DNA of 14,738 nucleotides from assembly GCA_014297435.1 (NCBI GenBank), contig JACOQA010000007.1:1-14738 (forward strand), written 5' to 3'. Each line of letters begins with the position of its first letter. Position 1 is the first letter of the stretch. The DNA comes from Candidatus Nanohaloarchaea archaeon. GTDB lineage: Archaea; Nanohalarchaeota; Nanosalinia; Nanosalinales; Nanosalinaceae. The position numbers were made by a program, and so were the translations under genes. This document shows, in pieces, positions 1-14,738 of the stretch. The notes beneath the pieces were generated by a model. That model saw nothing but the letters and a program-made list of their open reading frames with translations, was not told the DNA's origin and searched no databases.

Positions 1-905
1 TCTCTCATCTCCGGCTCCAGCTCGTACATCGCACGGATAAATTCTCTCCAGCCGATGATCTGACGCAGAAACCCTTCCAGAGAATTCATAAGGTAATTAT
101 GTTCTTCATTCGCTTCGAGTGTTTTCTCCACAACTTCTTCAGGTGTTATCAGCCCGATATTGATCGAAGAAGAGAGTAGCGAGTGGAATCCGAACTTTAG
201 GTCGGAGTCTATAGCATCTTGGTAGTCTCCAAACTTCTCTAATCTATTCTTTAGAAAGTCTTCCAGATTTTCAAGTGCCTGTTCGCGCGTGACCGGCCAG
301 AAAAAGCCCTCTATTTTTCCCGGATTGTCTGCAAAGTTCTCTTCAACATATTCTTTAGCTTCTTCAACATGTTCGGATGAGAACTGAGGTATTTCCGGCT
401 TTTCTACGTCTTGAGGCATTTTCTTCCTGTTTTCCGGATCGAAGCTCCATTTCCCGCCTTCAGGTTTGCCATCCTCGTCAACAAGAATATTGTACTTTTT
501 CCGCATTCTTTTGTAGTAGTTTAACTGGAAGTATTCGTGTGTAGAGAAGTAGTCCTCGTTAAAGTCCATGGATGCCATGAATCCTGGGTTTTGTTCGAAG
601 ACTAGTTCGGAATCATGTTTCTCAGCTAAAGCCTCGAGCTGATTCCTAACTTTGTGATCTACAGGGTCGTACATCCGGATTTCCGACTCTTTCTCAAAAA
701 TCTTGGCTATGTCTTGGTCGAACTCTACATAATTTACATCAAAGCGCTCAGAATATGCTTTCATAGATGCTCTGTGAAGCACCAGTTTCTTCCTGTGAAA
801 CTTGAAGTCCGTAAAGTATCGGGAGTGTTCAACAAGGTATTTTCTACCGGCTTCAACAGGCTCGGGAAAGAGCTGGTTAGGCAGAATAATGGAAGCCTTG
901 CTCAT
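1..905 (-). CDS. Cryptochrome/photolyase family protein, PhrB/CryB (FeS-BCP, DPRP/COG3046) type; 3' end lies outside the window
   Basis: Not in the ORF track; translated by hand. ATG at 905-903 gives MSKASIILPNQLF...FKFHRKKLVLHRASMKAY. Further in-frame segments read GKPEGGKWSFDPENRKK, FGDYQDA, FHSLLSSSINIGLITPEEV and NSLEGFLRQIIGWREFIR, all hallmark motifs of this family. The frame runs to the window edge. Confidence 0.93.
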   Translation of the reverse strand, partial: MSKASIILPNQLFPEPVEAGRKYLVEHSRYFTDFKFHRKKLVLHRASMKAYSERFDVNYVEFDQDIAKIFEKESEIRMYDPVDHKVRNQLEALAEKHDSELVFEQNPGFMASMDFNEDYFSTHEYFQLNYYKRMRKKYNILVDEDGKPEGGKWSFDPENRKKMPQDVEKPEIPQFSSEHVEEAKEYVEENFADNPGKIEGFFWPVTREQALENLEDFLKNRLEKFGDYQDAIDSDLKFGFHSLLSSSINIGLITPEEVVEKTLEANEEHNYLMNSLEGFLRQIIGWREFIRAMYELEPEMR

Positions 906-985
906 ACCAATTTTATCAATTCCAAAGTTAAATTCGTGTCGAAATCAGGTCAAAAAATAAGAGATTTTGATTAGCTCAAATAAGT

Positions 986-1519
986 ATGAAAGCGGATAAA
1001 CAGTTCATAGAGAAATATCTGGAAATATATTCCGAAACGCAAGGAGTTCTTCCAGAAAGACTAGAAAACTTCGGTGAAAAGTACAGGTCTCAAGGATATC
1101 TAACTAGAAAACAGCTTTACGAGATCGCGTATGAGTCGAGCACCAGAAGCGCATACCATGTCAAGAAGAATCCGAAAGAAAGATGTAAGGAGATAACTTC
1201 GAACGTTCTCGAGGTTGAAGGAGATTTCTCCAAGATGCAGCTCCTAACCGGTCTGAAAGGTTTTAAGGCGCCTACAGCCTCGTGCGTTATCGGTGCTTTG
1301 GACGGCAGCGAACATGCAGTGGTTGATACGAGAGTCTGGGCATCGCTCGAGAGACTAAACCACCTCGATTCACGCAAGGAAAGCTTTGAAACTGAAGATT
1401 ATGTCAAGATGATTGAACCTATACGTCAGATAGCAGAAGAGACAGGTTTTAAACCTGTCAAGGTAGGTTATGCCCTTTTTGCCCATGATTTTGACGTTCG
1501 GGAAGGCACGCTCCACTAA
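986..1519 (+). CDS. HhH-GPD superfamily DNA glycosylase-like protein (no FeS cluster)
   Basis: HhH-like LTGLKGFKAPTASCVI is followed by VVDTRV. Asp114 lies 18 residues after the position of the EndoIII catalytic Lys, the same spacing as EndoIII K120/D138. Transcribed divergently from the photolyase. Confidence 0.7.
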   Translation: MKADKQFIEKYLEIYSETQGVLPERLENFGEKYRSQGYLTRKQLYEIAYESSTRSAYHVKKNPKERCKEITSNVLEVEGDFSKMQLLTGLKGFKAPTASCVIGALDGSEHAVVDTRVWASLERLNHLDSRKESFETEDYVKMIEPIRQIAEETGFKPVKVGYALFAHDFDVREGTLH

Positions 1520-1527
1520 TTTAAATT

Positions 1528-1947
1528 TTGGAACTCTTCAAGACTGGTGTGAGCATCAAACACTCAGATCAATATGAAGTAGGAAGAGAGATAGTAAGAA
1601 CAGCCACCAATGAGGATATTCTTGCAGATATAAAGCAGGAGCTAGAGAATGTGCGTGAGCAAAAATATAGGAGCTCAGAACCTGAAATTTTCGCTTTAAA
1701 CAAACTGTACTCTGAAATGGAAACTCTAATTGATAACTCAGATGATTTAAACGAATTCCTTGATGGCGTAGAACAGAAGAGACAGGATTATTCTGAAGGA
1801 ATTAGAATAATGGGATTCGAGGTTGGAAAGAGCGAGTTATTTGCGTCGGAAAGAAGCTGTTTTGATAGTTTGGTTTTCGAGATTTGCGCTGGAGCAGTTG
1901 AAAACTACGAGAGCTCAGCTGAGGAGGAAGCCTATACATATCTTTAG
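1528..1947 (+). CDS. Hypothetical acidic, helical protein (start uncertain, TTG)
   Basis: 139-aa ORF filling the gap 8 nt after the glycosylase stop; halophilic D/E-rich composition; no recognised motif. Confidence 0.6.
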   Translation: MELFKTGVSIKHSDQYEVGREIVRTATNEDILADIKQELENVREQKYRSSEPEIFALNKLYSEMETLIDNSDDLNEFLDGVEQKRQDYSEGIRIMGFEVGKSELFASERSCFDSLVFEICAGAVENYESSAEEEAYTYL

Positions 1948-2008
1948 ATCCTTAAACATAGTTTCGAGATCGGGTCTACGTCCTTAGAAGTTATATTGAG
2001 CATTTATA

Positions 2009-5000
2009 TTAGAAATAGTCCATGATATTTTCTCGGTCAAAAATGTTTTCTTCTCCGACCTGTTTCTTCAACTTCTTCGCAGTTCTATCTCCGATCAAAC
2101 GCTTCAGCTTCTCGAATGAAACCTCTCTTATTGCTTCCCTATCTCTTATTCCGTGATCGTGAAGTTTTCTTGCCCTAACACGACCGATCTGGTCATACTC
2201 AACCAAGTTAAGAAGTTCTTTCTCGATTCCATGCTGCAGCCGGATACGGAGTTTTTCAAGCTCTTTCTCGTTCCCCAAGTCTTTCATCCGAGCCATTTCT
2301 TTTGCGGCGTAGAGAAGCCAGTCAGCATCCTTCATCTTTGCTCTGATACCGCCGGGTGCGACACCGTACTTATCCATCAACTGCTCCTCATCAACTTCCG
2401 AGATCCATCCCTGCATCACCATAGAGTTCTTCATACACTCCAGGAAGTGGTCGTACTCAGGATCCCATTCTAGAGGTGTATCCTCCAGTATGTACTTCTC
2501 GGCATCATTAAACGCCTGCTGTATGTCTGAACGCTCATCATCCTTAATCCTAGGTCTTGGCTGCATCTCCGTGGTCCTAGAAAGCATAAACAGGTAGGAA
2601 ACTGGTTTTGTCTCTTTCTCCTCAGTCCTTTTCAAGGATTCAAGCATCAAGTTGGCGGAATCCGGATCTATATACAGTTCAGAAACACGTTTTCCGATAG
2701 GCGTCGCATCGATCTCCTCATCTAAGAACTCGTACTCTATCAAGTCTTCTACCACGGACTTAACCTTGGATTTTACCTCGGAAAAGTCTCCGAACTGGTA
2801 AGCATAGAAAGTTTTGGAGTAAAACTCGTAGACATCCTCCATCGAGTTACAGTAGTTGGAAGCGATAAGAGACATTGTGTGCATACGCAGGATTGGCTCT
2901 GCCGCAAGTTTTGACTGTATTCTTTCCGGTTCGCCGAGAACAAAGCGTTCAAGTATTTTGTCTTTTGTGCCCGGGTTTTTAGCGATGGATATAGCTTCTC
3001 CGTAGTCATCGTACTTTGGGCGACCTGCTCTCCCGCAGTTGTGCAGTATGGCCCTAGATCCGGTCACGTAGTTGTGGTTGTCTTCTACCTCTATGTTGTA
3101 TACTTTTTCTTTGTTTCCCTTTCTTATATCAAGGATTTCTGTGTATTCTGCGGCTTTTTTTCTATGTTCATTTGAGTTTTGATAGTTGCTGTATTCTTCA
3201 GTTTCTATATCGACTTTAACAGGATCTATTTTCTCCGCTAACTTGTTTATGCTGTCTTTATTTCGTATTTTGAGGAAGTAGCTTTTCTTGTTCACTTCGT
3301 ACTTCTGTCCATCTATTTCTAAGTCCTCGATAAATTTAGAGTCTACTCTGGACTTGACGCCCAATCCTGCTAGAAGTTCTTGTAAGTCCTTACCAAACTT
3401 CTCGCTTGAACTAGAAAAATGAATTCTGCGCTTGTATTCTTCTTTATTCTCATAGTAAGAGCCGTCACCGTCAAAGACACCTTCTATAAAGCTAGCCTGT
3501 AGCCTTTCAGGTAGTTCAAAGATTATCTCAGAGACCTCTGTTTTCTCAGATTTATTTCCGTAAGGTATCTCGAAGACATCTTTCATTAATTCGGCGAGTA
3601 ACGTGTTTCCTACTTCTAACCGGTACTTACCAGGTTCTCTTTCCTCTTCATAGCATTCAAGTCCGAGGTTGTTGAACGCGGATTTGGCTCTTTCTATGAT
3701 TTCCTTGTTAGTGTTGAAAACTCGGATATTGGTATAAACGCTTCCGGTTCTTTTGTCTTCCGTTCTGTTCAAGTTACCGTCGGTCAACACAATGCCTAAG
3801 AGCCAAAGAAAATCTTCTGTCAATTTTTCAGGAATTTCTATTCGGTTGCCATAGCTGCTCTTTATGTTGTCTATATGTGCTGCAATTTCTCCCTTTGATT
3901 TTCCTAGCTCTTTACAAGCCTTCAGCATTCCATGTAGTGGAACTGCTTTCCTATTGTTCTTGTAATGATAGACAGTAGATTCGCTTAAATCGAGCCTTTC
4001 CGCTAACTCTTTATCTTTCAGATCGAATTCTTCTTTGTACTCGATCAGAACCTTTCCGGCGTCCTCGACGTAACATTCATTGGGCACTAGTTCGTAGAAG
4101 AAAGGTTTTCTATCGGACGGGTGACCGTTCCCAAGTTTGATCTTGTCTCCTTCACTCAGTTTTCCGGCTTCCAGCCATTCAAAATCATTTTCTTTCTTAG
4201 CTAGAACAGGGTGGTTCTCCGTTAGACGGAAGCTCCCTGTCTCAGTTTCTATCTCCGTGATTTGTGCTTGCCTTTCGAAATAGTCAGCAACCTTTTTTGC
4301 CTCAAGTCCTGAATCGCTATGTGAAACAACTTCTATCTCTTCTTTGTTCTCAACTATTTTACCTATCTTCTTTCGCCGACCGTTAGGTAGAACAATTTTC
4401 TGGTCGTAGGGGAGGCACATCTGCTCGTACTCAAGCACAGGAATAAACTCCATCCCTCTTCCCGTGTACCGCTTTAAGTCTCGCATTATAACTCTGAAAG
4501 CGGGGAGGTTAACTCCTGCAGCGAGCGTTGGAGTCGCAGAAACTGTTCTGATCAATCCTTCCTTGAAAGCTTTCTCGACCAACTGACGCTGTCTGGTAAC
4601 AAGTCCAGCGTGGTGATAGGCAGCTCCTTTCCTGACATTTTTCGCTAATCTTTTGCACTGCGATGTCGGAGATCCTAATACGTTCAATATGTCGTCGGCA
4701 TAACGTTCTAGTTCTTTTTTCTCTTCTCTTGAAAGACCGTCTCTAACGACGTTTCCACATCGATCTGAACTCTTTTCAGCGCCTTTCCTTGATGAACAGA
4801 ATATTATTGTCTGTTTATCTTTCTCTAGCGTATTTTCCACGAGGTTCAAAGTTTTCCTTCCGTGATGGTCGTCGACGAAAAACGTTTCGCTCTCGACCTC
4901 ATTTTCTTCCTCCTCCTGAAGTTCAGTACCGGTCTTGAATGCGGAAGCTCCTGAATCCCGGTCTTCATTCGCTTTCTCGTCCGAGTCCTGTTTTTCGTAG

Positions 5001-5659
5001 TCGTCAGGGTAGAAATCTACGGTGTTTCCCTCCATTATGCCTTCTTTAAGCTCTACAGGTCTGTAATCTGATTCAACTAGTTCTGCATCAAGCCATTCTG
5101 CAAGCTCGTTGGAGTTTGAGATTGTCGCCGAAAGTCCAAGCATCTGGAAGTCAAGCAGATCTCTTAGCCTAGTCAAAGTTACTTCTAGGGTAGGTCCACG
5201 ATTCTCCGAGGTCAGAAGATGTATTTCGTCAGTAACCACCAAGTTGATCTCGTGGATCCACGAAGGGTTGTGTCTGAGCATCGAGTCCAGCTTTTCAGAG
5301 GTCGTCACAACGATATCGGTGTTCTCTAGATAGTCGCCTTCGTCATCAAGATCGCCTACAGAAATCGATACGTTCAAGTCTTCGTAACGCTCGGAAAAGT
5401 CCTCGTATTTCTCTGAAGCTAGAGCTTTTAGCGGAACTATGTAAACTGCTTTTCCGCCGCCTTTAACGACCTGGTTGACCATTGCCAGTTCAGCTATGAA
5501 AGTTTTTCCGGATGCTGTCGGAGCAGCAACTATCATGTCCTCAGCATCCATCAGACCGGCGTCCACAGCTTTCTTTTGAGGAGGATTGAGCTCGGTTATT
5601 CCCGATTCTATATAGTCTGTTTTGATGTTTTCCGGTAGCTCTAGATTTTCTACTTTCAC
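2009..5659 (-). CDS. hel308: Hel308/Hjm (Ski2-like) SF2 DNA helicase precursor containing an intein; spliced product about 756 aa
   Basis: GTG start. Q motif LNPPQ, Walker A APTASGKT, PLKALASEK, DEIH, LSAT, HHAGL, ATPTLAAGVNLP; motif VI QM/CGRAGRP is split by the intein; C-terminal HhH IGRVRARKL. Confidence 0.93.
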   Translation of the reverse strand: MKVENLELPENIKTDYIESGITELNPPQKKAVDAGLMDAEDMIVAAPTASGKTFIAELAMVNQVVKGGGKAVYIVPLKALASEKYEDFSERYEDLNVSISVGDLDDEGDYLENTDIVVTTSEKLDSMLRHNPSWIHEINLVVTDEIHLLTSENRGPTLEVTLTRLRDLLDFQMLGLSATISNSNELAEWLDAELVESDYRPVELKEGIMEGNTVDFYPDDYEKQDSDEKANEDRDSGASAFKTGTELQEEEENEVESETFFVDDHHGRKTLNLVENTLEKDKQTIIFCSSRKGAEKSSDRCGNVVRDGLSREEKKELERYADDILNVLGSPTSQCKRLAKNVRKGAAYHHAGLVTRQRQLVEKAFKEGLIRTVSATPTLAAGVNLPAFRVIMRDLKRYTGRGMEFIPVLEYEQMCLPYDQKIVLPNGRRKKIGKIVENKEEIEVVSHSDSGLEAKKVADYFERQAQITEIETETGSFRLTENHPVLAKKENDFEWLEAGKLSEGDKIKLGNGHPSDRKPFFYELVPNECYVEDAGKVLIEYKEEFDLKDKELAERLDLSESTVYHYKNNRKAVPLHGMLKACKELGKSKGEIAAHIDNIKSSYGNRIEIPEKLTEDFLWLLGIVLTDGNLNRTEDKRTGSVYTNIRVFNTNKEIIERAKSAFNNLGLECYEEEREPGKYRLEVGNTLLAELMKDVFEIPYGNKSEKTEVSEIIFELPERLQASFIEGVFDGDGSYYENKEEYKRRIHFSSSSEKFGKDLQELLAGLGVKSRVDSKFIEDLEIDGQKYEVNKKSYFLKIRNKDSINKLAEKIDPVKVDIETEEYSNYQNSNEHRKKAAEYTEILDIRKGNKEKVYNIEVEDNHNYVTGSRAILHNCGRAGRPKYDDYGEAISIAKNPGTKDKILERFVLGEPERIQSKLAAEPILRMHTMSLIASNYCNSMEDVYEFYSKTFYAYQFGDFSEVKSKVKSVVEDLIEYEFLDEEIDATPIGKRVSELYIDPDSANLMLESLKRTEEKETKPVSYLFMLSRTTEMQPRPRIKDDERSDIQQAFNDAEKYILEDTPLEWDPEYDHFLECMKNSMVMQGWISEVDEEQLMDKYGVAPGGIRAKMKDADWLLYAAKEMARMKDLGNEKELEKLRIRLQHGIEKELLNLVEYDQIGRVRARKLHDHGIRDREAIREVSFEKLKRLIGDRTAKKLKKQVGEENIFDRENIMDYF
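3038..4417 (-). mobile_element. Intein (460 aa, precursor aa 415-874) with LAGLIDADG homing endonuclease and an HTH
   Basis: Block A CLPYDQKIV, block B LTENHPVL, LAGLIDADG blocks LLGIVLTDG and FIEGVFDGDGS, block F VYNIEVEDNHNYV, block G ILHN followed by Cys+1. Removing it restores EQMCGRAGRP. Confidence 0.95.
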
Positions 5660-5710
5660 ACTTGGTTATTCGTATTGAAAGCTTATCATTATCCTCTCTT
5701 ACACAAGCAG

Positions 5711-5718
5711 TTTTTAAG
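5711..5718 (+). promoter_or_regulatory. Putative TATA box of the 5739 ORF
   Basis: GTTTTTAA(G) about 21-28 nt upstream of the start, consistent with a leaderless archaeal transcript. Confidence 0.45.
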
Positions 5719-5738
5719 CAGAGATCTGAGTAGTAAAC

Positions 5739-6077
5739 TTGGTGAATCCGAAGGAATTTCTAGCTGCCTTCTCTCCATGGATGGCTGTGGATGAAGACGA
5801 TATTTTTACTAGAGAAGACGCTTACAGATACGAAAAAGAGTCTCGTCAAGATTTCGAAGAGGTTTATAGAGCCTTCTCGCATTATAAACAGGATAAAACG
5901 CTTTTAGATAAACATAAATGTGTTCAGTCTATAATAAACCACTTTGGTCTTAATGAGGAAGAGCATGAATCTTTGATGAGGGGAGAGCCGTTTGAATTAG
6001 CTTCCATAGATGAGGAATATCCTGGACGTGTTATAGTTGAGGTAAAAAGACACTATGACTTAGAGGACGACCTATAG
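5739..6077 (+). CDS. Hypothetical acidic protein (TTG 5739 or GTG 5742 start)
   Basis: 112-aa ORF with an upstream TATA-like element; its 3' end overlaps the folA 3' end by 25 nt; no recognised motif. Confidence 0.6.
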   Translation: MVNPKEFLAAFSPWMAVDEDDIFTREDAYRYEKESRQDFEEVYRAFSHYKQDKTLLDKHKCVQSIINHFGLNEEEHESLMRGEPFELASIDEEYPGRVIVEVKRHYDLEDDL

Positions 6078-6538
6078 GTCAGAAATGAGAGGTCTCCTTC
6101 TTCCTTTTCTCTGATCTTCACCCAATCATTCTCATCCCAATCAGGAAAGTATCTATCTCCCTCGTAGTTTTCATGTATGATTGTCAGCTCCATTTCATCG
6201 GCTTCGTTTAAAGTCTGACGGTAGATACTTGAACCTCCTATTATGAAGACCTTATCGCTTTTTTCACCAGCTTTCTCCCAGGCTTCTTCAAGACCCTTCG
6301 CCAGAAATACGTTTTCAGGTAGTTCTGGGTCAGAATTTGAAATAATTATGTTCTTTCTCCCAGGCAAAGGTCTATACTGTTCAGGAAGAGAGAAAAAAGT
6401 CTTTCTTCCCATGACAACCGGTGAACCCATAGTCAGTTCTTTGAAATGTTTCAAATCTTTCGGGTAGTGCCATGGAATGTCTCCATCACTACCTATCACC
6501 CTCTCTTCCGTCATAGCCGCCACTATAATCTTCTTCAT
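6053..6538 (-). CDS. folA: Dihydrofolate reductase
   Basis: IVAAMTEERVIG, IPWHYPKDLKHFK, VVMGRKTF, RPLPGRKNII, FIIGGSSIY, EGDRYFP. Confidence 0.97.
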   Translation of the reverse strand: MKKIIVAAMTEERVIGSDGDIPWHYPKDLKHFKELTMGSPVVMGRKTFFSLPEQYRPLPGRKNIIISNSDPELPENVFLAKGLEEAWEKAGEKSDKVFIIGGSSIYRQTLNEADEMELTIIHENYEGDRYFPDWDENDWVKIREKEEGDLSFLTYRSSSKS

Positions 6539-7185
6539 TTTTTTAGCGAGCTGAAAATGTATTCTCGGTTTTCAACATCGAACTCTACCTCGGAATTTTC
6601 CTCAAGCCTTTCCATTATTTCCCCGGCTCTTCTAAGAAGATCTGCTTTCTGACCAAAATCCAGTTCTTCTTCAACTTTCTGTCTCAGCTGCTCTTCCGGC
6701 ACTCTGTTAATATCTGAGTCGTCAGGAGTGAGCTCTTCTTTAATTCTCCAGCTTACTGATCCTGCTCCACTGTACTCAATTGCCTCTTGTTCCTCCATAT
6801 CTTGGAAGTAGACGAAGTTTGTTTCTGACTTAGTTCTCTCAAGCCCTACTATTTCGTAGACTTCGCTCAGAATTTTGCTTGCAGCCTGGTAGGTGATATC
6901 AGTCTTCTCCGCTATTTCCGGACCCCTAAATGCAACAGGGTCGATGCCGTCTATAACTGGTTTGAGGGTTTCTCTGTATCTTTTCAGGCTGTTACCGCTG
7001 TAGAATTGTACTGTGTCGGAAGATTCGTACAGGCGGTCTGTTGACCTAAGCACGTCTTCTACAGTCTCTGGTTCAAGACCTAGATTGGAGCTGAGTTCAT
7101 TCAGGTCTACCTCTTCACCGGTTCTGTATCGTTCTCTAGCGGTTTCAATGATAACTTCGGTTTCTGTTTCCCTGGCTTGGCTCAT
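6535..7185 (-). CDS. Hypothetical protein with two or three predicted (winged) HTH motifs
   Basis: HTH-like VDLNELSSNLGLEPETVEDVL and FRGPEIAEKTDITYQAASKIL. Start overlaps the thyA stop (TAATG) and stop overlaps the folA start (ATGA). Confidence 0.75.
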   Translation of the reverse strand: MSQARETETEVIIETARERYRTGEEVDLNELSSNLGLEPETVEDVLRSTDRLYESSDTVQFYSGNSLKRYRETLKPVIDGIDPVAFRGPEIAEKTDITYQAASKILSEVYEIVGLERTKSETNFVYFQDMEEQEAIEYSGAGSVSWRIKEELTPDDSDINRVPEEQLRQKVEEELDFGQKADLLRRAGEIMERLEENSEVEFDVENREYIFSSLKK

Positions 7186-8195
7186 TATTCTGCGATTCCA
7201 AACTTGATTCCTGGGTGTGGATTGTATTCCTCGAGTTTGAAGTCTTCGTACTCCATCTCATCTATTGGTTTGTCTGGAACTTTCATTTCAGGTCTTTCCC
7301 GTGGCTCCCTTGAGAGCTGCTCTAACATGCCAGGAACGTGGTCTTTTCTGTCTTCTGTCTGCTCTGGAGCATTATTCTCTATCCAGTTCTTTATTTCTAG
7401 GTATTCCTGTTTTTTCTCGGCTTCGCCTATCTTTTCCCTTAGTTTTTCCAGGTTTTCTCTGTACCATTCGCCTCTTTCTCCCTTTCCACAGTAGATGTGG
7501 GCGTCAACTATAGTGTGAGCGAACTCTCCCAGTTCGAGATCAGTTTGTTTTGCGATAATACGCATTATCAGCGAATATGCCGCTATATTGAAGGGTATTC
7601 CAAGGGCTATGTCGCCTGAGCGCTGTGTTAGGTGGAGATTCAGCTTTCCGTTCTGAACGTTAAACACGAAGCTGTAATGGCACGGAGGAAGCTTTGAGTT
7701 TGCTGCGTTAGAAGGGTGCCACGCGTTAACAACGATCCTTCGAGATTTTGGATTGTCGTTCAGCTGATCTATAACGTATTTTATTTGGTCAAAGGTTAAT
7801 CGACCGTCCTCTTCTTCATTAACCCATTTGTTGTCTTCAGAAGGCCATGCCTCACCTTCTAGCTGATCATTTTTTTCCGGTATAGGGAATCTTCTCCAGA
7901 AACGACCATAAGCTGTTTCCAGCAGACCTTCTTCGTCAGCCCATGCATCCCAGATCTTTGTCTCCTCTCTCAGGTTCTTTATGTGCTCTTCTCCGGAAAA
8001 GTACCAGAGAAGCTCGTGGATCAGAGAGTTCCATCTGTAACCCGAGAGATCTTTTGTCGTTAACAAAGGAAAACCTTCTTGCTGATCTATCTTGTAGAAA
8101 TAGCTGAAGTGCGAGATAGTATCGACACCGGTTCTATTGGGCTTGTAGTTGCCGTTTTCGAGAACGTGTCCGACTAAATCAAGATATTCTTCCAT
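7185..8195 (-). CDS. thyA: Thymidylate synthase ThyA, haloarchaeal long type
   Basis: NRTGVDT, GFPLLTTK, ELLWY, SRRIVVNAW, catalytic LPPCH, QRSGDIALGIPFN with the dUMP-specifying Asn, DAHIY, plus the roughly 45-aa insert seen in haloarchaeal ThyA. Confidence 0.97.
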   Translation of the reverse strand: MEEYLDLVGHVLENGNYKPNRTGVDTISHFSYFYKIDQQEGFPLLTTKDLSGYRWNSLIHELLWYFSGEEHIKNLREETKIWDAWADEEGLLETAYGRFWRRFPIPEKNDQLEGEAWPSEDNKWVNEEEDGRLTFDQIKYVIDQLNDNPKSRRIVVNAWHPSNAANSKLPPCHYSFVFNVQNGKLNLHLTQRSGDIALGIPFNIAAYSLIMRIIAKQTDLELGEFAHTIVDAHIYCGKGERGEWYRENLEKLREKIGEAEKKQEYLEIKNWIENNAPEQTEDRKDHVPGMLEQLSREPRERPEMKVPDKPIDEMEYEDFKLEEYNPHPGIKFGIAE

Positions 8196-8217
8196 TTATA
8201 CTTCCACTCCCCTATAG

Positions 8218-8223
8218 ATTAAT
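8218..8223. promoter_or_regulatory. Palindromic TATA-like element centred between thyA and the 8246 ORF
   Basis: ATTAAT with exactly 22 nt on each side to the two divergent start codons. Confidence 0.45.
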
Positions 8224-8245
8224 AGTTTCAAAGTAGTTTAATATT

Positions 8246-8491
8246 TTGAGATTGATTTCTGAAAAAGTGAGTCACGAAATACTATCGACAAATGAAGACA
8301 TTAGAGGACAGATAACTCTTGACCAGTCTATCGAGATGGGAGAGGGCGAAATATACATGTCAAGACCCTACTCCTCAGTATTCAATTGCGAAGCCGGCGT
8401 CGCAAGCTTAGCCTTATGTGAGGACGACGACTTCTATGAGATAGATGATCTAGATCCTCAAGACCCGGACTACGGTGAGATATATCGCTAA
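8246..8491 (+). CDS. Small acidic hypothetical protein
   Basis: 81-aa ORF with a TTG start filling the thyA-glyA gap; its stop overlaps the glyA stop (CTAA, 4 nt). Confidence 0.5.
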   Translation: MRLISEKVSHEILSTNEDIRGQITLDQSIEMGEGEIYMSRPYSSVFNCEAGVASLALCEDDDFYEIDDLDPQDPDYGEIYR

Positions 8492-9750
8492 AACTCAACC
8501 TCAGAGTCCTCATAGAGTGGAAACTCATCTAATAGTTTGGAGACAGTCTCCGAGATTTGTTCTGCTAGATCGCGGTCTTCCGGATTTTTGACTAGTTTTC
8601 CAATCATCGCTCCTATTTCACGTAACTCCTCTTCAGACATGCCTCTGGTGGTTAGAGCAGGAGTGCCTATTCTAATTCCTGAAGTTACCATGGGTGGTTC
8701 AGGGTCGTAAGGAACGGCATTCTTGTTGACGACAATATTTGCTTTCTCTAATAATTCCTCAGCCTCTTTTCCTGTAATTTCCTCTTCTCTCAGATCAACC
8801 AGAACAAGATGGTTGTCTGAACCGCCGGAAACCATCCTAATACCTTCTTTTCTAAGTCCCTCCACTAAGGCTTGAGTATTCTTCACAATCTGCTCCGAGT
8901 ATTCCTTAAATTCAGGTTTCATAGCTTCTTTAAAGCAGACTGCCTTTCCCGCGATCTGATGCATTAAAGGTCCGCCCTGAGAGTAAGGGAAAACCGCCGA
9001 ATCAACATCCTCTGCATACTCTTCTTTACACAGAATCATTCCGCCTCTTGCACCTCTAATCGACTTGTGGGTGGTAGTAGTTACAATATCGCACTCCGGG
9101 AAAGGGTTAGGATGTTCTCCGGTCGCCACAAGCCCCGATATGTGAGCGATGTCGCACATAAGCAGTGCGTTAACCTCGTCTGCTACCTCTCTAAACATCT
9201 CGAAGTCTATTTCTCTTGGATAAGCAGAGTAACCGCAGACAATTAGATCGGGGTCGTGCTCCCTAGCTGCCTCGAGGATGTCCCTCTTCTCGAACCTCTC
9301 CGTCTCCTCGTTGATTCCGTACGTTTCGAAGTCGAACAGGTCTCCTGAAAAGTTGACGCCGTGTCCATGGGTCAAGTGACCGCCATGGGAGAGCACAGGT
9401 CCTAGAATCTTATCTCCTGCATCGAGTTGAGAGAAATAGGCTGCGAAGTTTGCCTGCGAACCGGAGTGTGGCTGGACGTTAGCATGGTCTGCATTAAAGA
9501 TTTTACAGGCTCTTTCACGAGCTAGATTCTCTATCTTGTCATGGTGCTCGCAGCCAGCATAGTATCTTTTTCCAGGATAGCCTTCTGCATACTTGTTTGT
9601 GAGTACTGAACCTTGTGCCTGCAGAACCTGTTTAGGCACGAAGTTCTCTGAGGCTATCATCTCGAGAGATTCGCTTTCTTGTCTTTCAATCTCGTTCTTC
9701 AGGGCTTTATGGACTTCAGGGTCAGCCTCAGAAAGATTCTGATGATCCAT
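8488..9750 (-). CDS. glyA: Serine hydroxymethyltransferase (bacterial/haloarchaeal THF type)
   Basis: MIASEN, NKYAEGYPGKRYYAG, NVQPHSGSQAN, GGHLTHG, DIAHISGL, PLP-lysine TTTTHKSIRGARGG, SGIRIGTPALTTRG. Confidence 0.98.
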   Translation of the reverse strand: MDHQNLSEADPEVHKALKNEIERQESESLEMIASENFVPKQVLQAQGSVLTNKYAEGYPGKRYYAGCEHHDKIENLARERACKIFNADHANVQPHSGSQANFAAYFSQLDAGDKILGPVLSHGGHLTHGHGVNFSGDLFDFETYGINEETERFEKRDILEAAREHDPDLIVCGYSAYPREIDFEMFREVADEVNALLMCDIAHISGLVATGEHPNPFPECDIVTTTTHKSIRGARGGMILCKEEYAEDVDSAVFPYSQGGPLMHQIAGKAVCFKEAMKPEFKEYSEQIVKNTQALVEGLRKEGIRMVSGGSDNHLVLVDLREEEITGKEAEELLEKANIVVNKNAVPYDPEPPMVTSGIRIGTPALTTRGMSEEELREIGAMIGKLVKNPEDRDLAEQISETVSKLLDEFPLYEDSEVEF

Positions 9751-9793
9751 ATTTTATTAGCCGACACCGAGAATGAAGTTAGTTTCGAAAGAT

Positions 9794-9808
9794 GAAAACC
9801 ATTTATTG
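9794..9808 (+). promoter_or_regulatory. Putative BRE-TATA for a start at 9830
   Basis: GAAAACC-ATTTATTG, with the TATA-like part 22-29 nt upstream of ATG 9830. Confidence 0.45.
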
Positions 9809-9829
9809 TTTACGGATTCTAAGATCTTT

Positions 9830-10726
9830 ATGGCAGAAGACGAGTCCGGAGAACTAGATCGCAGATTGTGGGAACAATCCGGGCACAGATTCGTCAGCCA
9901 CGATTTAGATGAGGATGTCAACCATCTCTCCTCGAACATTTTCAAACTGGTGAGGGAGGAGGAAGATATTGAGGAAGCGGTCAAAGTCCAGAGCGATTTT
10001 GTAGAGGCTTATAAATTTCTTGAAGGCAGGAAAGACAGTTTTGATTCATCTGTAGGTCCGGATTCGGCAATTGAATTTCTTGAGAGCGTACGCATGGATT
10101 ACGATATTTCGAAGCTCTCAGCTGAAGGTATGTGTGCTGAGAAGGTTTTGGATAAAGCAATTCATCTTGGGAAAGTGGGAAGAGCGCTCGAAAGGTTGAA
10201 AACCGACTATAATGATGAGAGAAGCCGCTATGTATCGGCGGATATACTTATCCCTCCGTCTGAAAATGTTGAGTATGAATGGGAAGGTTCTGAAGATTTA
10301 GAGAAAGCAATTTCAGATTTGAATATTCCTGGTAACGAACTTTGGGGTCTTAGCCATACACTCGACAAAAATCACCAAGATCATGCCGAAGAATCCGGAA
10401 GCTTTAGGATACGCGCTGGCACCTATGAAATTGAAGATTTTGAGGAACAGTTTGAATGCGCAGAAGACCCTGATGGATACTTGTGGATGGAGTTCGTCAG
10501 TGAAGGCGGCTCATATCCTAGAGGGAAAAATATGACCGACCTAACTAGTTTTGATCCTTCAGATAGCTCCGGTCTAGGACTTTATGCATGGGATGCAACC
10601 GTTAAGGAGTTTGGTGGCGGTCATTTCATATATGAGAGAGACGGGGACTTTGTAGATGGAATTATTTTGCCTTATAGGGACGAACAGAAAGAGGGTGAAA
10701 AGAAAAAATTGGTTTCTCCTGTTTGA
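9830..10726 (+). CDS. Degenerate histidine kinase-like protein (HisKA-like plus HATPase_c/GHKL-like), no sensor or TM domain; the ORF can be extended to 9773
   Basis: H box-like RFVSHDL, N box-like LSHTLDKNHQDHA, G1-like MEFVSEGGSYP, F-like LTSFDP and G2 SSGLGLYAWDATVKEFGG...IILP, all in canonical order. Confidence 0.62.
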   Translation: MAEDESGELDRRLWEQSGHRFVSHDLDEDVNHLSSNIFKLVREEEDIEEAVKVQSDFVEAYKFLEGRKDSFDSSVGPDSAIEFLESVRMDYDISKLSAEGMCAEKVLDKAIHLGKVGRALERLKTDYNDERSRYVSADILIPPSENVEYEWEGSEDLEKAISDLNIPGNELWGLSHTLDKNHQDHAEESGSFRIRAGTYEIEDFEEQFECAEDPDGYLWMEFVSEGGSYPRGKNMTDLTSFDPSDSSGLGLYAWDATVKEFGGGHFIYERDGDFVDGIILPYRDEQKEGEKKKLVSPV

Positions 10727-11380
10727 CTATTCGTCTGCCAACATCTGCACCACGAGCTGTAAAATTTCTACGAAAACACCCATGAAAGCTGTGTAAAGGC
10801 CGATAGCGTTGAGGAATGGTGTTCCCGGTCTTGTCTTCGTAACATAGATCTGGTGAATCAGGTAGACTATGAAGCCCAGTAGCGCGAGTACGAAAGCAAT
10901 CATTACTGCGGTTCCGCTAAAACTTCCTAGGAAAGAGATTCCTAAAACTCCGAGAAACATATAGTTCGCGTACTTACCCCAGCTGGAGAAGTCATGTCCG
11001 GTTCCGTAAACCAATAGGCCTGAAAGCAAGGCTATAACTGAAGAAGCAACCGCTGTTATTCCAAGCGCTGCTGCCTGCAAACCAGGGGAAACCAACATGG
11101 TAAGTATTCCGGCCCCGAAGATACCGTAGCCTAGCTGTACTAGTCCGGTGCCTGCTACAGCTTTTTTGATATTCTCTGTCTTAATACCGGATCTCGAGAT
11201 CCATAAGCCTCCGCTCAAGAGCGCTCCATACACAAGGACTCCTACGAAGAAGTTGAATCCGAATACCAGGTCGTTAATCCCGGAAAGAGGGGTGAATACA
11301 AACATCCACATTATTCCGATGTTTAGAAGTATTAGGCCTGTAGCTATACCCAGACTTTTCAGTTGATCTTGATTAAACAT
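10727..11380 (-). CDS. Bax inhibitor-1/YccA-like multi-pass membrane protein (about 217 aa)
   Basis: About 7 hydrophobic segments; C-terminal AIGLYTAFMGVFVEILQL resembles BI-1 ALxLYLDFINLFLxLL. Start revised to ATG 11380 because the longer ORF overlaps tmk; a TATA-like ATTAAAA lies about 25 nt upstream. Confidence 0.65.
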   Translation of the reverse strand: MFNQDQLKSLGIATGLILLNIGIMWMFVFTPLSGINDLVFGFNFFVGVLVYGALLSGGLWISRSGIKTENIKKAVAGTGLVQLGYGIFGAGILTMLVSPGLQAAALGITAVASSVIALLSGLLVYGTGHDFSSWGKYANYMFLGVLGISFLGSFSGTAVMIAFVLALLGFIVYLIHQIYVTKTRPGTPFLNAIGLYTAFMGVFVEILQLVVQMLADE

Positions 11381-11450
11381 ATTAGAAAAGTTTTCTGGAA
11401 TTGTTTTAATTTCGATGGGTTCAAAACCTTCCGTTCCCAAGATCGGGTTT

Positions 11451-12050
11451 ATGAAGGAAAGAGAACTTCCCGGAAAGTTTATTGTTGTCGAGGGCGCTGA
11501 CGGCGCTGGAACGACAACCATGTCGAAGAAGCTGGCCGAGGAGGTCGATGCGTACTGGACACGAGAGCCGGCAGAGAACAGCATAGGCCAAAAAGTGGAT
11601 GAGATGATCTCCGGAGATAAGCACTCTGCGGAGGCGATTTCTCTGGCTTTCGCGGCTGACAGGATGATTCATCTGGAGGAAGAAGTTATCCCGCGTCTCG
11701 AAAAAGGTAAAACGGTGGTTTCGGACAGGTACTACCACTCTTCGCTTGTCTACCAGCCGGCCATGGGCGTCGACTTCGAGTGGAAGAAGCAGTTAAACAG
11801 GGAAGCCATAAAACCGGATCTGACGGTGCTGATAGATGTAGAAGCGGAGACTGGCATGGCAAGAGTGGAAGAAAGAGGTAAGGACGGTAATATCTTCGAG
11901 GAGATGGATTTCCAGCAGGAGGTAGTGATGAGATACAGACAGCTGCCTGAAAAGCTGGAGGAGCAGATCGTGAAGGTTGATGGGTCCAAAGGGATACAGG
12001 AGGTAGCACAGAGGGTGAAGAACGCGGTAAGAGGCCATATAGACGGGTAG
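11451..12050 (+). CDS. tmk: Thymidylate (dTMP) kinase; alternative start 11415
   Basis: FIVVEGADGAGTTT, TREP, LAFAADR, SDRYYHSSLVYQ, PDLTVLIDV. Confidence 0.92.
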   Translation: MKERELPGKFIVVEGADGAGTTTMSKKLAEEVDAYWTREPAENSIGQKVDEMISGDKHSAEAISLAFAADRMIHLEEEVIPRLEKGKTVVSDRYYHSSLVYQPAMGVDFEWKKQLNREAIKPDLTVLIDVEAETGMARVEERGKDGNIFEEMDFQQEVVMRYRQLPEKLEEQIVKVDGSKGIQEVAQRVKNAVRGHIDG

Positions 12051-12052
12051 AC

Positions 12053-12059
12053 TTTATAT
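12053..12059 (+). promoter_or_regulatory. TATA box of the DUF5828-like/PiT operon
   Basis: TTTATAT ending 28 nt before GTG 12088. Confidence 0.55.
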
Positions 12060-12087
12060 TCTGTAATCCGATGTATAACTTAGTAGA

Positions 12088-12644
12088 GTGCCTGAATCTA
12101 AACCAACGAACTCCGGCGTCGAGATGGAAGGGACGTGGGACGAAATAACAGAGTTCGGAAAGAAGGTTTCCGAGATCATAAGCCGTCAGCAAGATTGTTC
12201 AAGCAACGTTTTGAAGAATGGCGTCCTAAGAAAAAGGATGATAGCTCTAAAATGAAGCAGAAGACCGTTGAGAAAGCTTCTGTAGGTGAGAAAGATTTTG
12301 AGGATAAAAGCCAGGGTTTCCAGAGAGACCTCCGGTCCGCTTCAGCGAACACGGCGAAGGCCGGTAAAAAGGCGGTGAAGGCCGAAAACCCTGAAAAAGA
12401 GCTGAAAAATGCTTCGGAGGAAGCCGTAAGGCCTTTCCTCGCGGAGATAGTCAGGGTCTTAAGAGAGGTAGAAAAAACGGTTTACTCGTGGTTCTCCACT
12501 CCTCTGAATCCGTACTACTTTGACTCAGATAACTTTTCGGCGAGCCTGAGATCCAATAGTGGAGGTTACAGGATGGAGGTAAACTCGCCTAACAAAGAAA
12601 TCCGTCAGGATTTACAGGAAGAGATTAAAGAGGAAGACTGCTGA
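12088..12644 (+). pseudogene. Haloarchaeal DUF5828-like gene with a one-base frameshift near 12178-12205 (real lesion or sequencing error)
   Basis: The frame from 12088 gives MPESKPTNSGVEMEGTWDEITEFGKKVSEII and stops at 12255. The -1 frame carries FEEWRPK...KTVEKASVGE...LREVEKTVY...PYYFDSDNFSASL...MEVN. Both parts match my recollection of the family. Confidence 0.65.
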
Positions 12645-13570
12645 TGGATCCGGTGACGATATTCGCTTTGTTGGGCTCCGTGTTCATGGGTATCTCTATA
12701 GGTGCTTCGAGCGTCGCCCCGGCTTTCGGGCCTGTCAACTCCTCGGGGGCAGTGAACGTCCTTAGAGCAGCACTTCTCGCAGGTATATTTGCCCTTGTGG
12801 GCTCAATCGTTCAAGGAGGGAATGTGGCGAACACTGTAGGATCAGGTATATTGATGGGTTCCATTTCAGTGCTCCAGGCCGCGACCGTTCTAATAGTCGC
12901 CTCGGCTCTGGTTATAGTCAGCTTTCTCACCGATTATCCGATGCCCACCGCCTTTACAGTCGTCGGAGCTGTTATCGGAAGCGCCTTCTCGTTCGGGAAC
13001 GCCGTTTCATGGAGCGTATTTAGTGGCACCGCGCTTTACTGGCTCCTCGTACCCTTCTTCGCAGCAGGCCTAGCGTACGTTCTTGCGAAGGCACTCAGGG
13101 AAATCGTTCCGAACAAGGACTCCTCCAAATTGAAGTACCTGTTGGTGGTCTCCGGTTGCTACATGGCCTACACCGCGGGAGCCGGGTCTGTAGGTCTGGC
13201 GGTAGGCCCTCTTTCATCTCTCGAGCTTCCGCAGCTATTCCTCCTCACGCTGGGGGGTTTGGCGATCCTTGCGGGCTCCTGGATCTACTCTCCTCGCATA
13301 ATCAAGGCGGTTTCTTACGACTACTCGAACATAGGGCCGAGGAGGTCCATAGCTTCACTTCTTTCCGCTGCGTTTCTCGCACAGATAGGTATATTCTACG
13401 GGGTTCCAATATCGTTTAACGAGGCTATCATCGCGGCGGTAATAGGTTCAGGTCTGGTCGAGGGAGGTTCAAGCGTCGACGGCAGAAAACTGGGGAGAAC
13501 TGTTTTGGCATGGATCGGTGCTTTCCTCCTCGCAGGGGTACTGACTTTTGCCGTAGGTCTCCTGATCTAA
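12644..13570 (+). CDS. PiT/PHO4 family inorganic phosphate (anion) transporter, haloarchaeal divergent type
   Basis: About 10 TM segments with two-repeat architecture: IGASSVAPAFG, GGNVANTVGSG, PMPTAFTVVGAVIG, GVPISFNEAIIAAVIGSG. Start overlaps the upstream stop (TGATG). Confidence 0.85.
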   Translation: MDPVTIFALLGSVFMGISIGASSVAPAFGPVNSSGAVNVLRAALLAGIFALVGSIVQGGNVANTVGSGILMGSISVLQAATVLIVASALVIVSFLTDYPMPTAFTVVGAVIGSAFSFGNAVSWSVFSGTALYWLLVPFFAAGLAYVLAKALREIVPNKDSSKLKYLLVVSGCYMAYTAGAGSVGLAVGPLSSLELPQLFLLTLGGLAILAGSWIYSPRIIKAVSYDYSNIGPRRSIASLLSAAFLAQIGIFYGVPISFNEAIIAAVIGSGLVEGGSSVDGRKLGRTVLAWIGAFLLAGVLTFAVGLLI

Positions 13571-13589
13571 AACTTATCTGGCGAAAGGC

Positions 13590-13618
13590 CGGAAGTTTTC
13601 TAAAGTAGAAAAAATCCG
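13590..13618. promoter_or_regulatory. Inverted repeat (possible operator or terminator)
   Basis: CGGA-ag-TTTTCTA-aag-TAGAAAA-aa-TCCG, 11 of 13 positions pairing, located 11-39 nt upstream of ATG 13629. Confidence 0.4.
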
Positions 13619-13628
13619 TTACTATATT

Positions 13629-14018
13629 ATGGGCAGAATGGCTGAAGCCTTCGGAAATGACTCTCTAGGGTTGGCGCTGCTGGCGCTTGCAGTACTTACA
13701 GGTATAATTAATATCGCTGCAGGAATTATAAATAATTTTAGTGTTCTTCTGTGGGCTGGAGCCGGTTTTCTCGGAGGTGCAGCAATCTTTGCTTTGGGCG
13801 ACAGACTGGACTCGAGGATGGGCTTGGAACACGGTTTCACAAGAGCAACAATCGCAGGCCTCTCACTTCCCTACACAGGCTACCAGCTGGTGGCATACTA
13901 CGCTTACTATAGGTTGAGTTTCGGCCCTCTAGCGCTTATAGACAAGTTCATACAAGGAATTTTCTTGATTCTGGCGACCACCTACTTGTATAAACTTGTA
14001 TCAAAGAACTCCGGATGA
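13629..14018 (+). CDS. Small 4-TM membrane protein resembling a conserved haloarchaeal family (tentatively DUF7475)
   Basis: Hydrophobic segments with TGIIN, AGAGFLGG, LPYTGYQL and IDKFIQ patterns; family assignment from memory only. Confidence 0.6.
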   Translation: MGRMAEAFGNDSLGLALLALAVLTGIINIAAGIINNFSVLLWAGAGFLGGAAIFALGDRLDSRMGLEHGFTRATIAGLSLPYTGYQLVAYYAYYRLSFGPLALIDKFIQGIFLILATTYLYKLVSKNSG

Positions 14019-14081
14019 ATTACATAATTCTATACTGAACTCAAGTTCTTAAGATGGTTCAGAGAACTTTTGGTCAACGAC

Positions 14082-14738
14082 CTAGTTTGAATTTTGAACT
14101 AGGCACTGTTCGTCACTACTGGCCTCACCATTACTGTTGAATGGTCTGACTTCTACACAGATATTATCGCCACTGTTCCAACTGTTATCTGAAATTTGTT
14201 TACTGTCTGTAGAAGAACCTACTTCCACCATATTGGACTCATCGATACTACCTACTCCATAATAAATTCTGAATCCATTAACATTTGTACTGCTGCTGTA
14301 ACTAGACCAGTCAACACTCAAAGTGGTGGCTCCAACCGAGACTGTTTTAGTGGTGGTGTTAGTACTGCCGTCATCATCTTTAACTTTTAATTCAACAGTT
14401 TGATCTCCGCTGCTTCCAAAGCTGTTGGAAGGATTTTCTCCGGCGGATTCATAGGTTCCATCTCCATCCCAGTCCCACTCAAACAACTGGATACTGCCAT
14501 CACTATCACTGCTTAAACTGCCGTCAAAACTCACAGACTCACCAACAGTCGGCCCAGAAGGACTAAAGCTAAAATCAGCATAAGGAGAATCATTAGGATT
14601 CCACTTATCTGGAACCTTCGACCAATCACCATCAAAACCAGCTTTGTTCCAGAAATCGTCAGGTTTAGAATCAATATTTGGAACACCCCAAGAAGAAACA
14701 TCTTGATTAAAGGAATCGGCACTATAGAACATATCATC
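14082..14738 (-). CDS. C-terminal part of a surface/secreted protein: DUF285 (BspA-like) repeat, PKD domain, Fn3-like domain; 5' end outside the window
   Basis: Frame open to the window edge. MFYSADSFNQDVSSWGVPNI is a DUF285 repeat; PYADFSFSP...FDGSLSSDSDGSI...WDWDGDG...VELKVKDDDG is PKD; LSVDW...GFRIYY...VEVRPFNSNGE is Fn3-like. Confidence 0.85.
   Translation of the reverse strand, partial: DDMFYSADSFNQDVSSWGVPNIDSKPDDFWNKAGFDGDWSKVPDKWNPNDSPYADFSFSPSGPTVGESVSFDGSLSSDSDGSIQLFEWDWDGDGTYESAGENPSNSFGSSGDQTVELKVKDDDGSTNTTTKTVSVGATTLSVDWSSYSSSTNVNGFRIYYGVGSIDESNMVEVGSSTDSKQISDNSWNSGDNICVEVRPFNSNGEASSDEQCLVQNSN

Follow-up and report, generated by a model that had tools for sequence, protein, structure and literature searches.

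We analysed a 14,738-nucleotide stretch of DNA from a Candidatus Nanohaloarchaea archaeon (assembly GCA_014297435.1, contig JACOQA010000007.1, positions 1 to 14,738 of the forward strand; the whole stretch is referred to below as the window), in which an open reading frame (ORF) for a protein resembling a histidine kinase (protein P0001, the target) stands among genes of the thymidylate and folate cycle (Table 1). An earlier interpretation made from the letters of the DNA (the sequence-only reading) had placed this ORF head-to-head with glyA, and this is correct: glyA is divergent on the minus strand and the two are separated by a gap of 22 bp, or of 79 bp if translation begins at position 9830. 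The target is the fast-evolving representative of a nanohaloarchaeal (Nanosalina-type) family of small soluble kinases of 240–320 residues that is found at the thyA/glyA locus.

Table 1. Genes, domains and sequence motifs at the glyA locus of the window (residue numbers refer to the 317-residue translation).
Feature	Coordinates	Strand	Remarks
DHFR gene (dihydrofolate reductase)	6053..6538	-	Pfam DHFR_1, E 4.8e-49
216-residue ORF between thyA and the DHFR gene	6535..7185	-	Start and stop overlap both genes; sub-threshold HTH_10, E 0.0013
thyA (thymidylate synthase)	7185..8195	-	Pfam Thymidylat_synt, E 7.5e-92; downstream of glyA
glyA (serine hydroxymethyltransferase)	8488..9750	-	Pfam SHMT, E 6.8e-156; divergent from the kinase-like gene
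Near-invariant block	9773..9829	.	First 19 codons or, more likely, promoter DNA common to divergent glyA and the kinase-like gene
Histidine kinase-like gene	9773..10726	+	317 residues, or 298 from ATG 9830; family HMM E 8.8e-10, hhalign 94.2%, dN/dS 0.12
DHp-like helical hairpin, residues 37-84	9881..10024	+	Helices 37-62 and 66-84 in the AlphaFold2 model; His43 aligned with the family His in 20/20 rows
H-box FVSHDLDEDVNH	9890-9925	+	His43-Asp44
FVSHDL with His43	His at 9899-9901	+	Translation
Extra helical segment, residues 96-144, between DHp hairpin and CA domain	10058..10204	+	AlphaFold2 helices 96-109, 112-115 and 122-144
CA (HATPase_c-like, Bergerat-fold) domain, residues ~150-304	10220..10684	+	VIA-align Z 10-11.6, ~3 Å over 125-135 residues; Foldseek E 2.7e-6; ESM Atlas
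N-box LSHTLDKNHQDHA (Thr196, Asn200, His204)	10349..10387	+	Asn200 in 22/22 and Thr196 in 21/22 rows
TLDKNHQDHA with Asn200	Asn at 10370-10372	+	Translation
Eroded G1 box FVSEGGSYP (contains SEGGSYP)	10493..10519	+	Ser243 for Asp, Ser247 for second Gly, Gly245 kept
LTSFDP	10541-10558	+	Translation
G2 box SSGLGLY	10565-10585	+	Gly269 in 22/22 rows; Gly267 and Leu270 in >= 90% of rows
EFGGG turn after G2	within 10607-10624	+	Gly282 conserved in >= 90% of rows
ILP	10664-10672	+	Translation
Bax-inhibitor-1-like (BI1) membrane protein	10727..11584	-	Convergent with the kinase-like gene; Pfam Bax1-I, E 7.8e-7, below the curated cut-off
tmk (thymidylate kinase)	11415..12050	+	Pfam Thymidylate_kin, E 1e-40

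According to the ORF list and its translation, the frame closes with a TGA stop at 10724–10726. The second in-frame methionine (Met20, ATG at 9830) gives a product of 298 residues, and both the gene-caller version of the same protein in the database (P0002, 298 residues) and a database fragment (P0004) begin there. In a pairwise DNA alignment with the congener (genome G044), the 57 bp from 9773 to 9829 are nearly identical, with long identical runs and no third-position drift, and positions 9751–9772 are poorly conserved. Because this conservation lacks the third-position drift of coding DNA, the block looks like regulatory DNA and 9830 is favoured as the real start; we regard 9773–9829 as a candidate promoter or regulatory segment common to glyA and the kinase gene. 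Within the block, T/A-rich stretches precede the ATG at 9830 by about 25 bp. The protein is acidic, with a calculated isoelectric point of 4.4 and 23% Asp plus Glu. It was described in the sequence-only reading as having no sensor, in agreement with our finding of no transmembrane or hydrophobic segment (the highest 19-residue Kyte–Doolittle mean is 0.36) and no PAS or other sensor domain at a Pfam E value of up to 0.1. All of the kinase motifs named in that reading are likewise present in the ORF where it had placed them.

With the target alone as query, database searches reached no further than its genus. A word-indexed search returned three matches, namely the protein itself (P0002), the protein of the congener (P0003, 81% identical) and the 175-residue fragment P0004; an exhaustive phmmer search of 1.84 billion representatives returned one match, which was the target, and a related-locus search with P0001 found no relative. 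A whole-genome search of the 50 genomes of the same taxonomic family gave a weak match (E = 4.3e-4) to a 302-residue ORF between thyA and glyA in genome G036 (P0005, from Candidatus Nanosalina sp. J07AB43), which itself matches Pfam HATPase_c with 39.4 bits against a cut-off of 26.4. A tblastn match in G001 (locus L006, E = 0.0018) was dropped as compositional, as it lies in a Glu/Lys-rich coiled-coil protein. With P0005 as query, 22 of the 70 genomes of the order match at E <= 1e-3, and neither the genome of the window (G000) nor that of its congener is among them. A profile of the family alignment (A1; 22 rows, comprising the target and its relatives) matches 39 of the 70 genomes, a count that includes longer ordinary kinases, and leaves 31 without a match. 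The family set used below consists of 29 short genes (up to about 325 residues) from 27 genomes; one of them, the partial gene L009, was omitted from the alignment, and left out of the set altogether were two REC–PAS–kinase hybrids of 471–473 residues (L022 and L024), a 349-residue kinase with an N-terminal extension (L071) and weaker profile matches in ORFs of 390–1023 residues.

The target is in register with its relatives in A1 at His43, Thr196, Asn200, Gly245, Gly267, Gly269, Leu270 and Gly282. A hidden Markov model (HMM) of 21 rows from which the target clade was excluded (A3) was searched against the window in six-frame translation (328 pieces); it finds the target over residues ~35–283 with an E value of 8.8e-10, and the runner-up has an E value of 0.18. 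A profile–profile comparison of the three-sequence target clade with A3 by hhalign gives a probability of 94.2% and an E value of 1.1e-7 over 214 columns that begin at the H-box and extend past G2. The family profile also retrieves ordinary HisKA plus HATPase_c kinases (of 8000 candidates scored, 2437 proteins have E <= 1e-3) and matches 60 solved kinase sequences in the PDB. Identity of the target to any member outside its own genus does not exceed 22%. A maximum-likelihood tree was computed from 34 rows: all 22 of A1, seven more genes, one hybrid trimmed to its kinase part, and four database kinases, hand-picked from the profile matches and cut to their C-terminal 260 residues. The target falls inside a 27-row family clade with an ultrafast bootstrap of 100 and an SH-aLRT of 98. 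It occupies the longest internal branch of the tree (2.16 changes per site); the G027 and G032 copies form its sister group (94/91). The target is thus not the evolutionary orphan for which it had been taken: its family is present in at least 27 genomes of the order, and 17 of the 22 aligned members still score as HATPase_c (three of 22 match HisKA; E <= 0.01). The target matches neither model; curated models miss the most diverged members of the family.

Just outside the family clade lies L026 of G065 (P0006), a canonical short HisKA kinase from another taxonomic family, which is located beside glyA, is co-directional with glyA and thyA and is named 'HAMP domain-containing sensor histidine kinase' by NCBI. 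This copy may resemble the ancestral state, or a kinase may have been recruited to this locus a second time. Three thyA/glyA-linked kinases from a single genus (L021 of G027, L016 of G028 and L010 of G029) are found in different parts of the family tree, a scatter that suggests allele replacement between lineages or else long-branch artefacts.

Column counts over A1 indicate which parts of the kinase core are held. The phospho-acceptor histidine is present in all 20 rows that cover the position and is followed in each by Asp or Glu; in the target, His43-Asp44 sits in predicted helix 37–62, the first helix of the DHp-like hairpin. Asn200 of the N-box is invariant and Thr196 is nearly so (Table 1). 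The G1 aspartate column contains Asp in 17 rows, Asn in two, Glu in one and Ser in two, the serines belonging only to the target and its congener. The first G1 glycine is kept in 21 of the 22 rows, and the second position has Gly in 17 and Ser in five. The G1 box of the target reads S243-E-G245-G-S247 in place of DxGxG, so that the exchange of Asp for Ser pointed out in the sequence-only reading is real and is accompanied by the loss of the second glycine. The G2 box (S-S-G267-L-G269-L-Y) is intact, with Gly267 present in 21 of the 22 rows. Among five additional linked genes inspected by eye, that of G032 has an S-E-D-S-G stretch at G1 and that of G031 has no second G1 glycine; the kinase copies of G008 and G030, also read by eye, have weakened G2 boxes. 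Across the family, the histidine and the N-box asparagine vary least, and the glycine-rich nucleotide boxes erode repeatedly.

His43 and Asn200 are separated by exactly 157 residues. The corresponding spacing is 134–176 residues in 19 of 20 family rows and 107 in the canonical-looking L026, compared with 117 in SrrB and 114 in ThkA; these two canonical values are hand counts from two printed alignments, hmmalign having placed both residues in only five of 117 database kinases. The sequence-only reading was therefore right that the spacing is longer than usual, but this is not peculiar to the gene: it is a trait of the family and is accounted for by the extra helices between the DHp hairpin and the CA domain.

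The AlphaFold2 model of the target, with A1 as input, has a mean predicted local distance difference test score (pLDDT) of 62.4 and a predicted template-modelling score (pTM) of 0.59, and consists of five helices followed by an alpha/beta domain. In the PDB, Foldseek ranks histidine kinases first (4u7o, E = 2.7e-6) and BCKDK next; whole-chain template-modelling scores (TM) are low, at 0.25–0.35. With VIA-align, residues ~145–304 superpose on the CA domains of solved kinases with Z scores of 10–11.6 and a root-mean-square deviation of 2.6–4 Å (about 3 Å) for 121–154 aligned residues. A single-sequence model from the ESM Atlas (pTM 0.49) falls with HATPase_c clusters by features (0.94; 196–204 of 256 features) and with HisKA plus HATPase_c clusters by structure (TM 0.47–0.58). 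The model of the relative P0005 (pLDDT 82, pTM 0.79) has the same order of elements, with equivalent insert helices at residues 93–104 and 121–142, and also matches kinases. A homodimer prediction for residues 25–150 scored 0.00 without controls and speaks neither for nor against dimerization. The predicted fold is thus of the Bergerat (GHKL) type, in keeping with the kinase-like assignment of the sequence-only reading, for which a model without this fold would have been damaging.

Among proteins of known structure, the target most resembles the class I HisKA kinases (HK853 of Thermotoga maritima, 2c2a/3dge; ThkA, 3a0r; WalK/YycG, 4u7o/3sl2; the EnvZ chimera, 4kp4), which likewise carry the H-box histidine and an acidic residue on a hairpin and a CA domain with the N-box asparagine, the G2 box and the glycine turn; the superposition described above is on such domains, and the family profile matches these kinases at E values of 1e-14 to 1e-9. 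The target differs from them in the lack of a sensor, transmembrane segment, HAMP or PAS domain, in having no response-regulator match in its genome and no Pfam match of its own, in about 40 additional helical residues that follow the H-box helix and precede the CA domain (hence the spacing of 157 rather than 117 or 114), in SEGGS for DxGxG at G1 and in a threonine for the usual first asparagine of the N-box. BCKDK and PDK (1gjv and 1jm6; Foldseek E = 3e-5, Z = 9.9) similarly have an N-terminal module of at least four helices ahead of a Bergerat domain, but rank below the HisKA kinases as structural matches; sequence profiles lead to HisKA kinases only, and the conserved His-Asp/Glu H-box is a HisKA feature. 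The closest likeness is to the thyA/glyA-linked nanohaloarchaeal kinases such as P0005, with which the target shares size, helical insert, the N-box pattern T-x-x-x-N-x-x-x-H, the G2 box, neighbourhood and clade. Unlike these, it has no G1 aspartate and is invisible both to a BLAST-type search with P0005 and to Pfam; unlike most of them, it lies head-to-head with glyA on the flank away from thyA rather than between the two genes.

Synteny was read by tblastn with the proteins of the window. The kinase gene adjoins glyA in 24 of the 29 cases and lies between thyA and glyA in 15, usually in the order thyA(-)/kinase(+)/glyA(-). Of the five that do not adjoin glyA, one has thyA at a contig edge and four have neither gene beside them (two at contig starts and two unlinked copies). 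The exact order of the window, glyA(-)/kinase(+)/BI1(-)/tmk(+), recurs in G017, and the BI1 neighbour is found in G017, G055, G029 and G045. Within the order, the kinase family has stayed at a single locus in three taxonomic families. In terms of synteny, the tie to the thymidylate (dTMP) gene cluster that had been suggested for the target is borne out by these arrangements.

No receiver domain was found that could serve as the partner of the kinase. The genome of the window (998,768 bp in 15 contigs, 99% complete) contains no REC match over the cut-off, in the window or elsewhere, the best candidate (E = 0.12) being a pyridine-nucleotide disulfide (flavoprotein) oxidoreductase; this absence means 'not found with PF00072', and a strongly diverged receiver is possible. 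HisKA, HPt and STAS domain matches are also lacking in this genome, and its sole HATPase_c/GHKL match is subunit B of topoisomerase VI. A REC domain is matched at E <= 0.001 in 29 of the order's 70 genomes. Where the kinase is linked to thyA/glyA (25 genomes), 11 genomes have a REC domain and 14 do not; six of these 14 are at least 90% complete (G000, G001, G015, G020, G029 and G045) and two of the six are single-contig assemblies. The sequence-only reading, which had seen no response regulator in the window, is thereby extended to the genome, and the closest relatives of the target are not ordinary kinases with a cognate regulator. The gene is nevertheless maintained: relative to the congener, the nonsynonymous (dN) and synonymous (dS) divergences over 317 codons are 0.096 and 0.79 by the Nei–Gojobori method, and the resulting dN/dS of 0.12 is indicative of purifying selection. 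The reading frame is intact in both congeners. Synonymous divergence (pS) between the two is uneven along the locus, with values of 0.49 for the kinase gene, 0.36 for BI1, 0.78 for glyA and 0.76 for tmk, which could reflect a recent exchange of a kinase–BI1 block between lineages or codon constraints.

Several other features of the window adjoin the genes described above. The listed BI1 ORF overlaps tmk by 170 bp, and in the congener its N-terminal 45–60 residues match in a separate frame segment; the true start of BI1 is probably an internal methionine downstream of the listed ATG, with a short divergent spacer to tmk. The 216-residue ORF between thyA and the DHFR gene was considered as a conserved partner of the cluster and rejected, as it was found in one of 50 genomes of the family, its own, and not even in the congener. 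An acidic ORF of 81 codons (8246–8491, + strand) occupies the thyA–glyA spacer on the opposite strand and matches no Pfam family. The congener has it too (74% identity), as have two further genera (L075, 48%, E = 2e-13; L073, 32%, E = 6e-8), and it occupies the slot in which most relatives carry the kinase gene. It was rejected as a kinase remnant (E = 3.6 against the family HMM). Further away, positions 2009–5659 (- strand) encode a Hel308-type archaeal helicase of 1216 residues with an intein (Intein_splicing, residues 422–874), which includes a homing endonuclease (LAGLIDADG_3, residues 721–811).

Taking as established the family homology, the fold (as a model), the adjacency to glyA, purifying selection, the loss of the G1 aspartate and second glycine, and the lack of REC, HisKA, HPt and STAS matches in the genome, we think it probable that the ORF encodes a soluble, sensor-less transmitter of the HisKA/HATPase_c type, a local G1-impaired member of the thyA/glyA-locus family that acts as a binding or low-turnover module tied to the thymidylate cycle. 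In the predicted architecture, a helical hairpin bears His43-Asp44 and is followed by two or three additional helices and then by a CA domain of Bergerat fold. Canonical members of the family would autophosphorylate the conserved histidine with ATP. In the target lineage, with the adenine-contacting aspartate gone, ATP binding would be weak or lost, and the protein would act mainly through its conserved His/DHp surface and its CA domain, much like a repurposed pseudokinase, serving for binding or for signalling at low turnover. Both input and output would then be cytoplasmic and probably connected to the thymidylate/folate-cycle genes glyA, thyA, DHFR and tmk, and the output could not run through a receiver domain of the same genome. 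A precedent for such a role is DivL of Caulobacter (PDB entry 4q20, among the structural matches of the target), also a DHp–CA module that keeps its fold while departing from a canonical catalytic motif; a study of DivL describes it as a repurposed pseudo-histidine kinase that binds an ATP analogue weakly and works by protein binding (PMC4211667). The departures differ, however: DivL has exchanged His for Tyr and keeps PAS domains and its partner DivK, whereas the target keeps the histidine, has lost the G1 aspartate and has neither sensor nor receiver partner.

A number of observations weigh against this interpretation or limit it. The target has no curated kinase match of its own: HATPase_c and HisKA are absent from its Pfam results even at E <= 0.1, and NCBIfam (E <= 10) and phmmer against PDB sequences (E <= 10) each give no match. 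Its AlphaFold2 fold is not fully independent evidence, being partly inherited from canonical relatives (20 of the 22 input rows) and of moderate confidence, and its grouping in the tree with two G1-eroded members may result from long-branch attraction. The dN/dS value is derived from a single genome pair. The link to the dTMP genes is one of position, and in most genomes the kinase gene is on the strand opposite to glyA and thyA. In five high-quality genomes with no A1 match beside glyA, glyA is intact and next to thyA or BI1, with no kinase ORF in any of the five; thyA is beside glyA in four, three of the genomes have no match anywhere and two have only an unlinked longer kinase. An HMM search of all ORFs of at least 100 residues in these five loci gave nothing below E = 0.03. 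The gene is, judging from such loci, one that has been lost repeatedly among relatives, and because glyA stays intact without it the GlyA and ThyA enzymes do not need the kinase. Finally, the proposed loss of ATP binding is read from one alignment column, and Glu244, beside Ser243, might compensate.

The last point bears on the alternative that survives best, a working histidine autokinase with an unorthodox G1 box, in which His43 would be phosphorylated by ATP or another nucleotide and the phosphoryl group passed to an acceptor other than REC. In a study of VanS kinases, the G1 aspartate is said normally to form a salt bridge with the adenine amine and the N-box asparagine to be a ligand of Mg-ATP; VanS of the VanA and VanC types, in which the aspartate is replaced by Asn and the second glycine is missing, binds ATP weakly and is yet a functional kinase, and another kinase with the same Asp-to-Asn exchange is reported to prefer GTP (10.1101/2022.12.12.520123). 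The loss of ATP binding in the target is to that extent open to question; its G1 substitution suggests a loss of activity but is no proof of it, and true pseudokinase status is unproven because such VanS-type kinases still function. VanS also differs from the target in being membrane-bound and in having a cognate regulator, VanR. The retention of His43-Asp44, Asn200, G2 and Gly245, the adjoining Glu244 and the low dN/dS are all compatible with an active enzyme. Against this, serine is shorter than Asp or Asn and not isosteric with Asp as the Asn of VanS is; the long internal branch is what would be expected after relaxed or changed constraint, and no acceptor domain of a known type (REC, HPt or STAS) was matched in the genome. 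An active autokinase is thus possible, though we judge it rather unlikely.

A more far-reaching proposal, which we put forward only tentatively and consider doubtful, is that the entire family represents a receiver-independent kinase output, in which the helical insert of a transmitter located in the cytoplasm would sense a signal of the nucleotide or folate cycle and the kinase would act directly on a non-REC target (SHMT, ThyA or their expression), the lineage of the target having dispensed with canonical ATP binding. If true, this would explain why at least six nanohaloarchaeal genomes that are nearly complete have retained a member of the family and no other protein of the two-component type.

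That the gene is instead a functionless remnant, decaying since its two-component system was lost, seems improbable. The absent response regulator, the 31 genomes without a profile match, the empty slot at all five loci checked and the erosion of G1 or G2 in several members are what a relic would leave, but a frame intact in both congeners, a dN/dS of 0.12 at a dS of 0.79, the continued conservation of the histidine, the N-box asparagine and G2, and the retention of the family at one locus across three taxonomic families are not. An effector acting on the two-component systems of a haloarchaeal host, for example by titrating or phosphorylating its response regulators, is very unlikely. Nanohaloarchaea live attached to haloarchaea, no receiver was matched in the genome of the window, and the best profile matches outside the family include kinases with the source names Halobacteriales, Natronomonas, Halorubrum and Halobaculum; on the other side, the protein has no signal peptide or transmembrane segment, the window offers no secretion or transfer context, the conserved place among housekeeping nucleotide genes argues for a role inside the cell and 11 of the 25 genomes with linked copies have REC domains of their own. 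Nothing in the present analysis supported the interference with host two-component signalling that the sequence-only reading had proposed. A chance series of motifs in a protein that is not GHKL, which the lack of any Pfam, NCBIfam or PDB sequence match for the protein alone and the modest model confidence might suggest, is scarcely credible given the agreement of profile, profile–profile, tree, language-model and fold evidence.

The fold and the type of family are already known, and at least one short nanohaloarchaeal kinase (P0006) carries a sensor histidine kinase name at NCBI. In titles and opening lines of abstracts on nanohaloarchaeal and orphan archaeal kinases, we found no account of the family or of a kinase at thyA/glyA, although Table S3 of PMC5847659 may list members; neither its thyA/glyA location nor the inserted helices, the many genomes without a receiver match or the diverged branch lacking the G1 aspartate were found described. 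According to that earlier census, the single finished nanohaloarchaeal genome of 2018 had no two-component proteins and some unfinished genomes had them (PMC5847659). As the present family shows, proteins of the two-component type do occur in nanohaloarchaea. Partnership with a receiver is what defines a two-component kinase; here such a family is fixed beside thymidylate and folate enzymes in small genomes (about 1 Mb), and no receiver is matched in 14 of the 25. This makes it a minimal natural system in which to study how a histidine kinase functions in the absence of a response regulator. The target, in which the histidine is kept and the adenine-binding aspartate is lost, constitutes a second natural experiment. 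A kinase copy in a receiver-less genome hints at signalling without the usual receiver protein; the positional link to the dTMP genes, if functional, would suggest that the supply of DNA precursors is regulated in an obligate symbiont.

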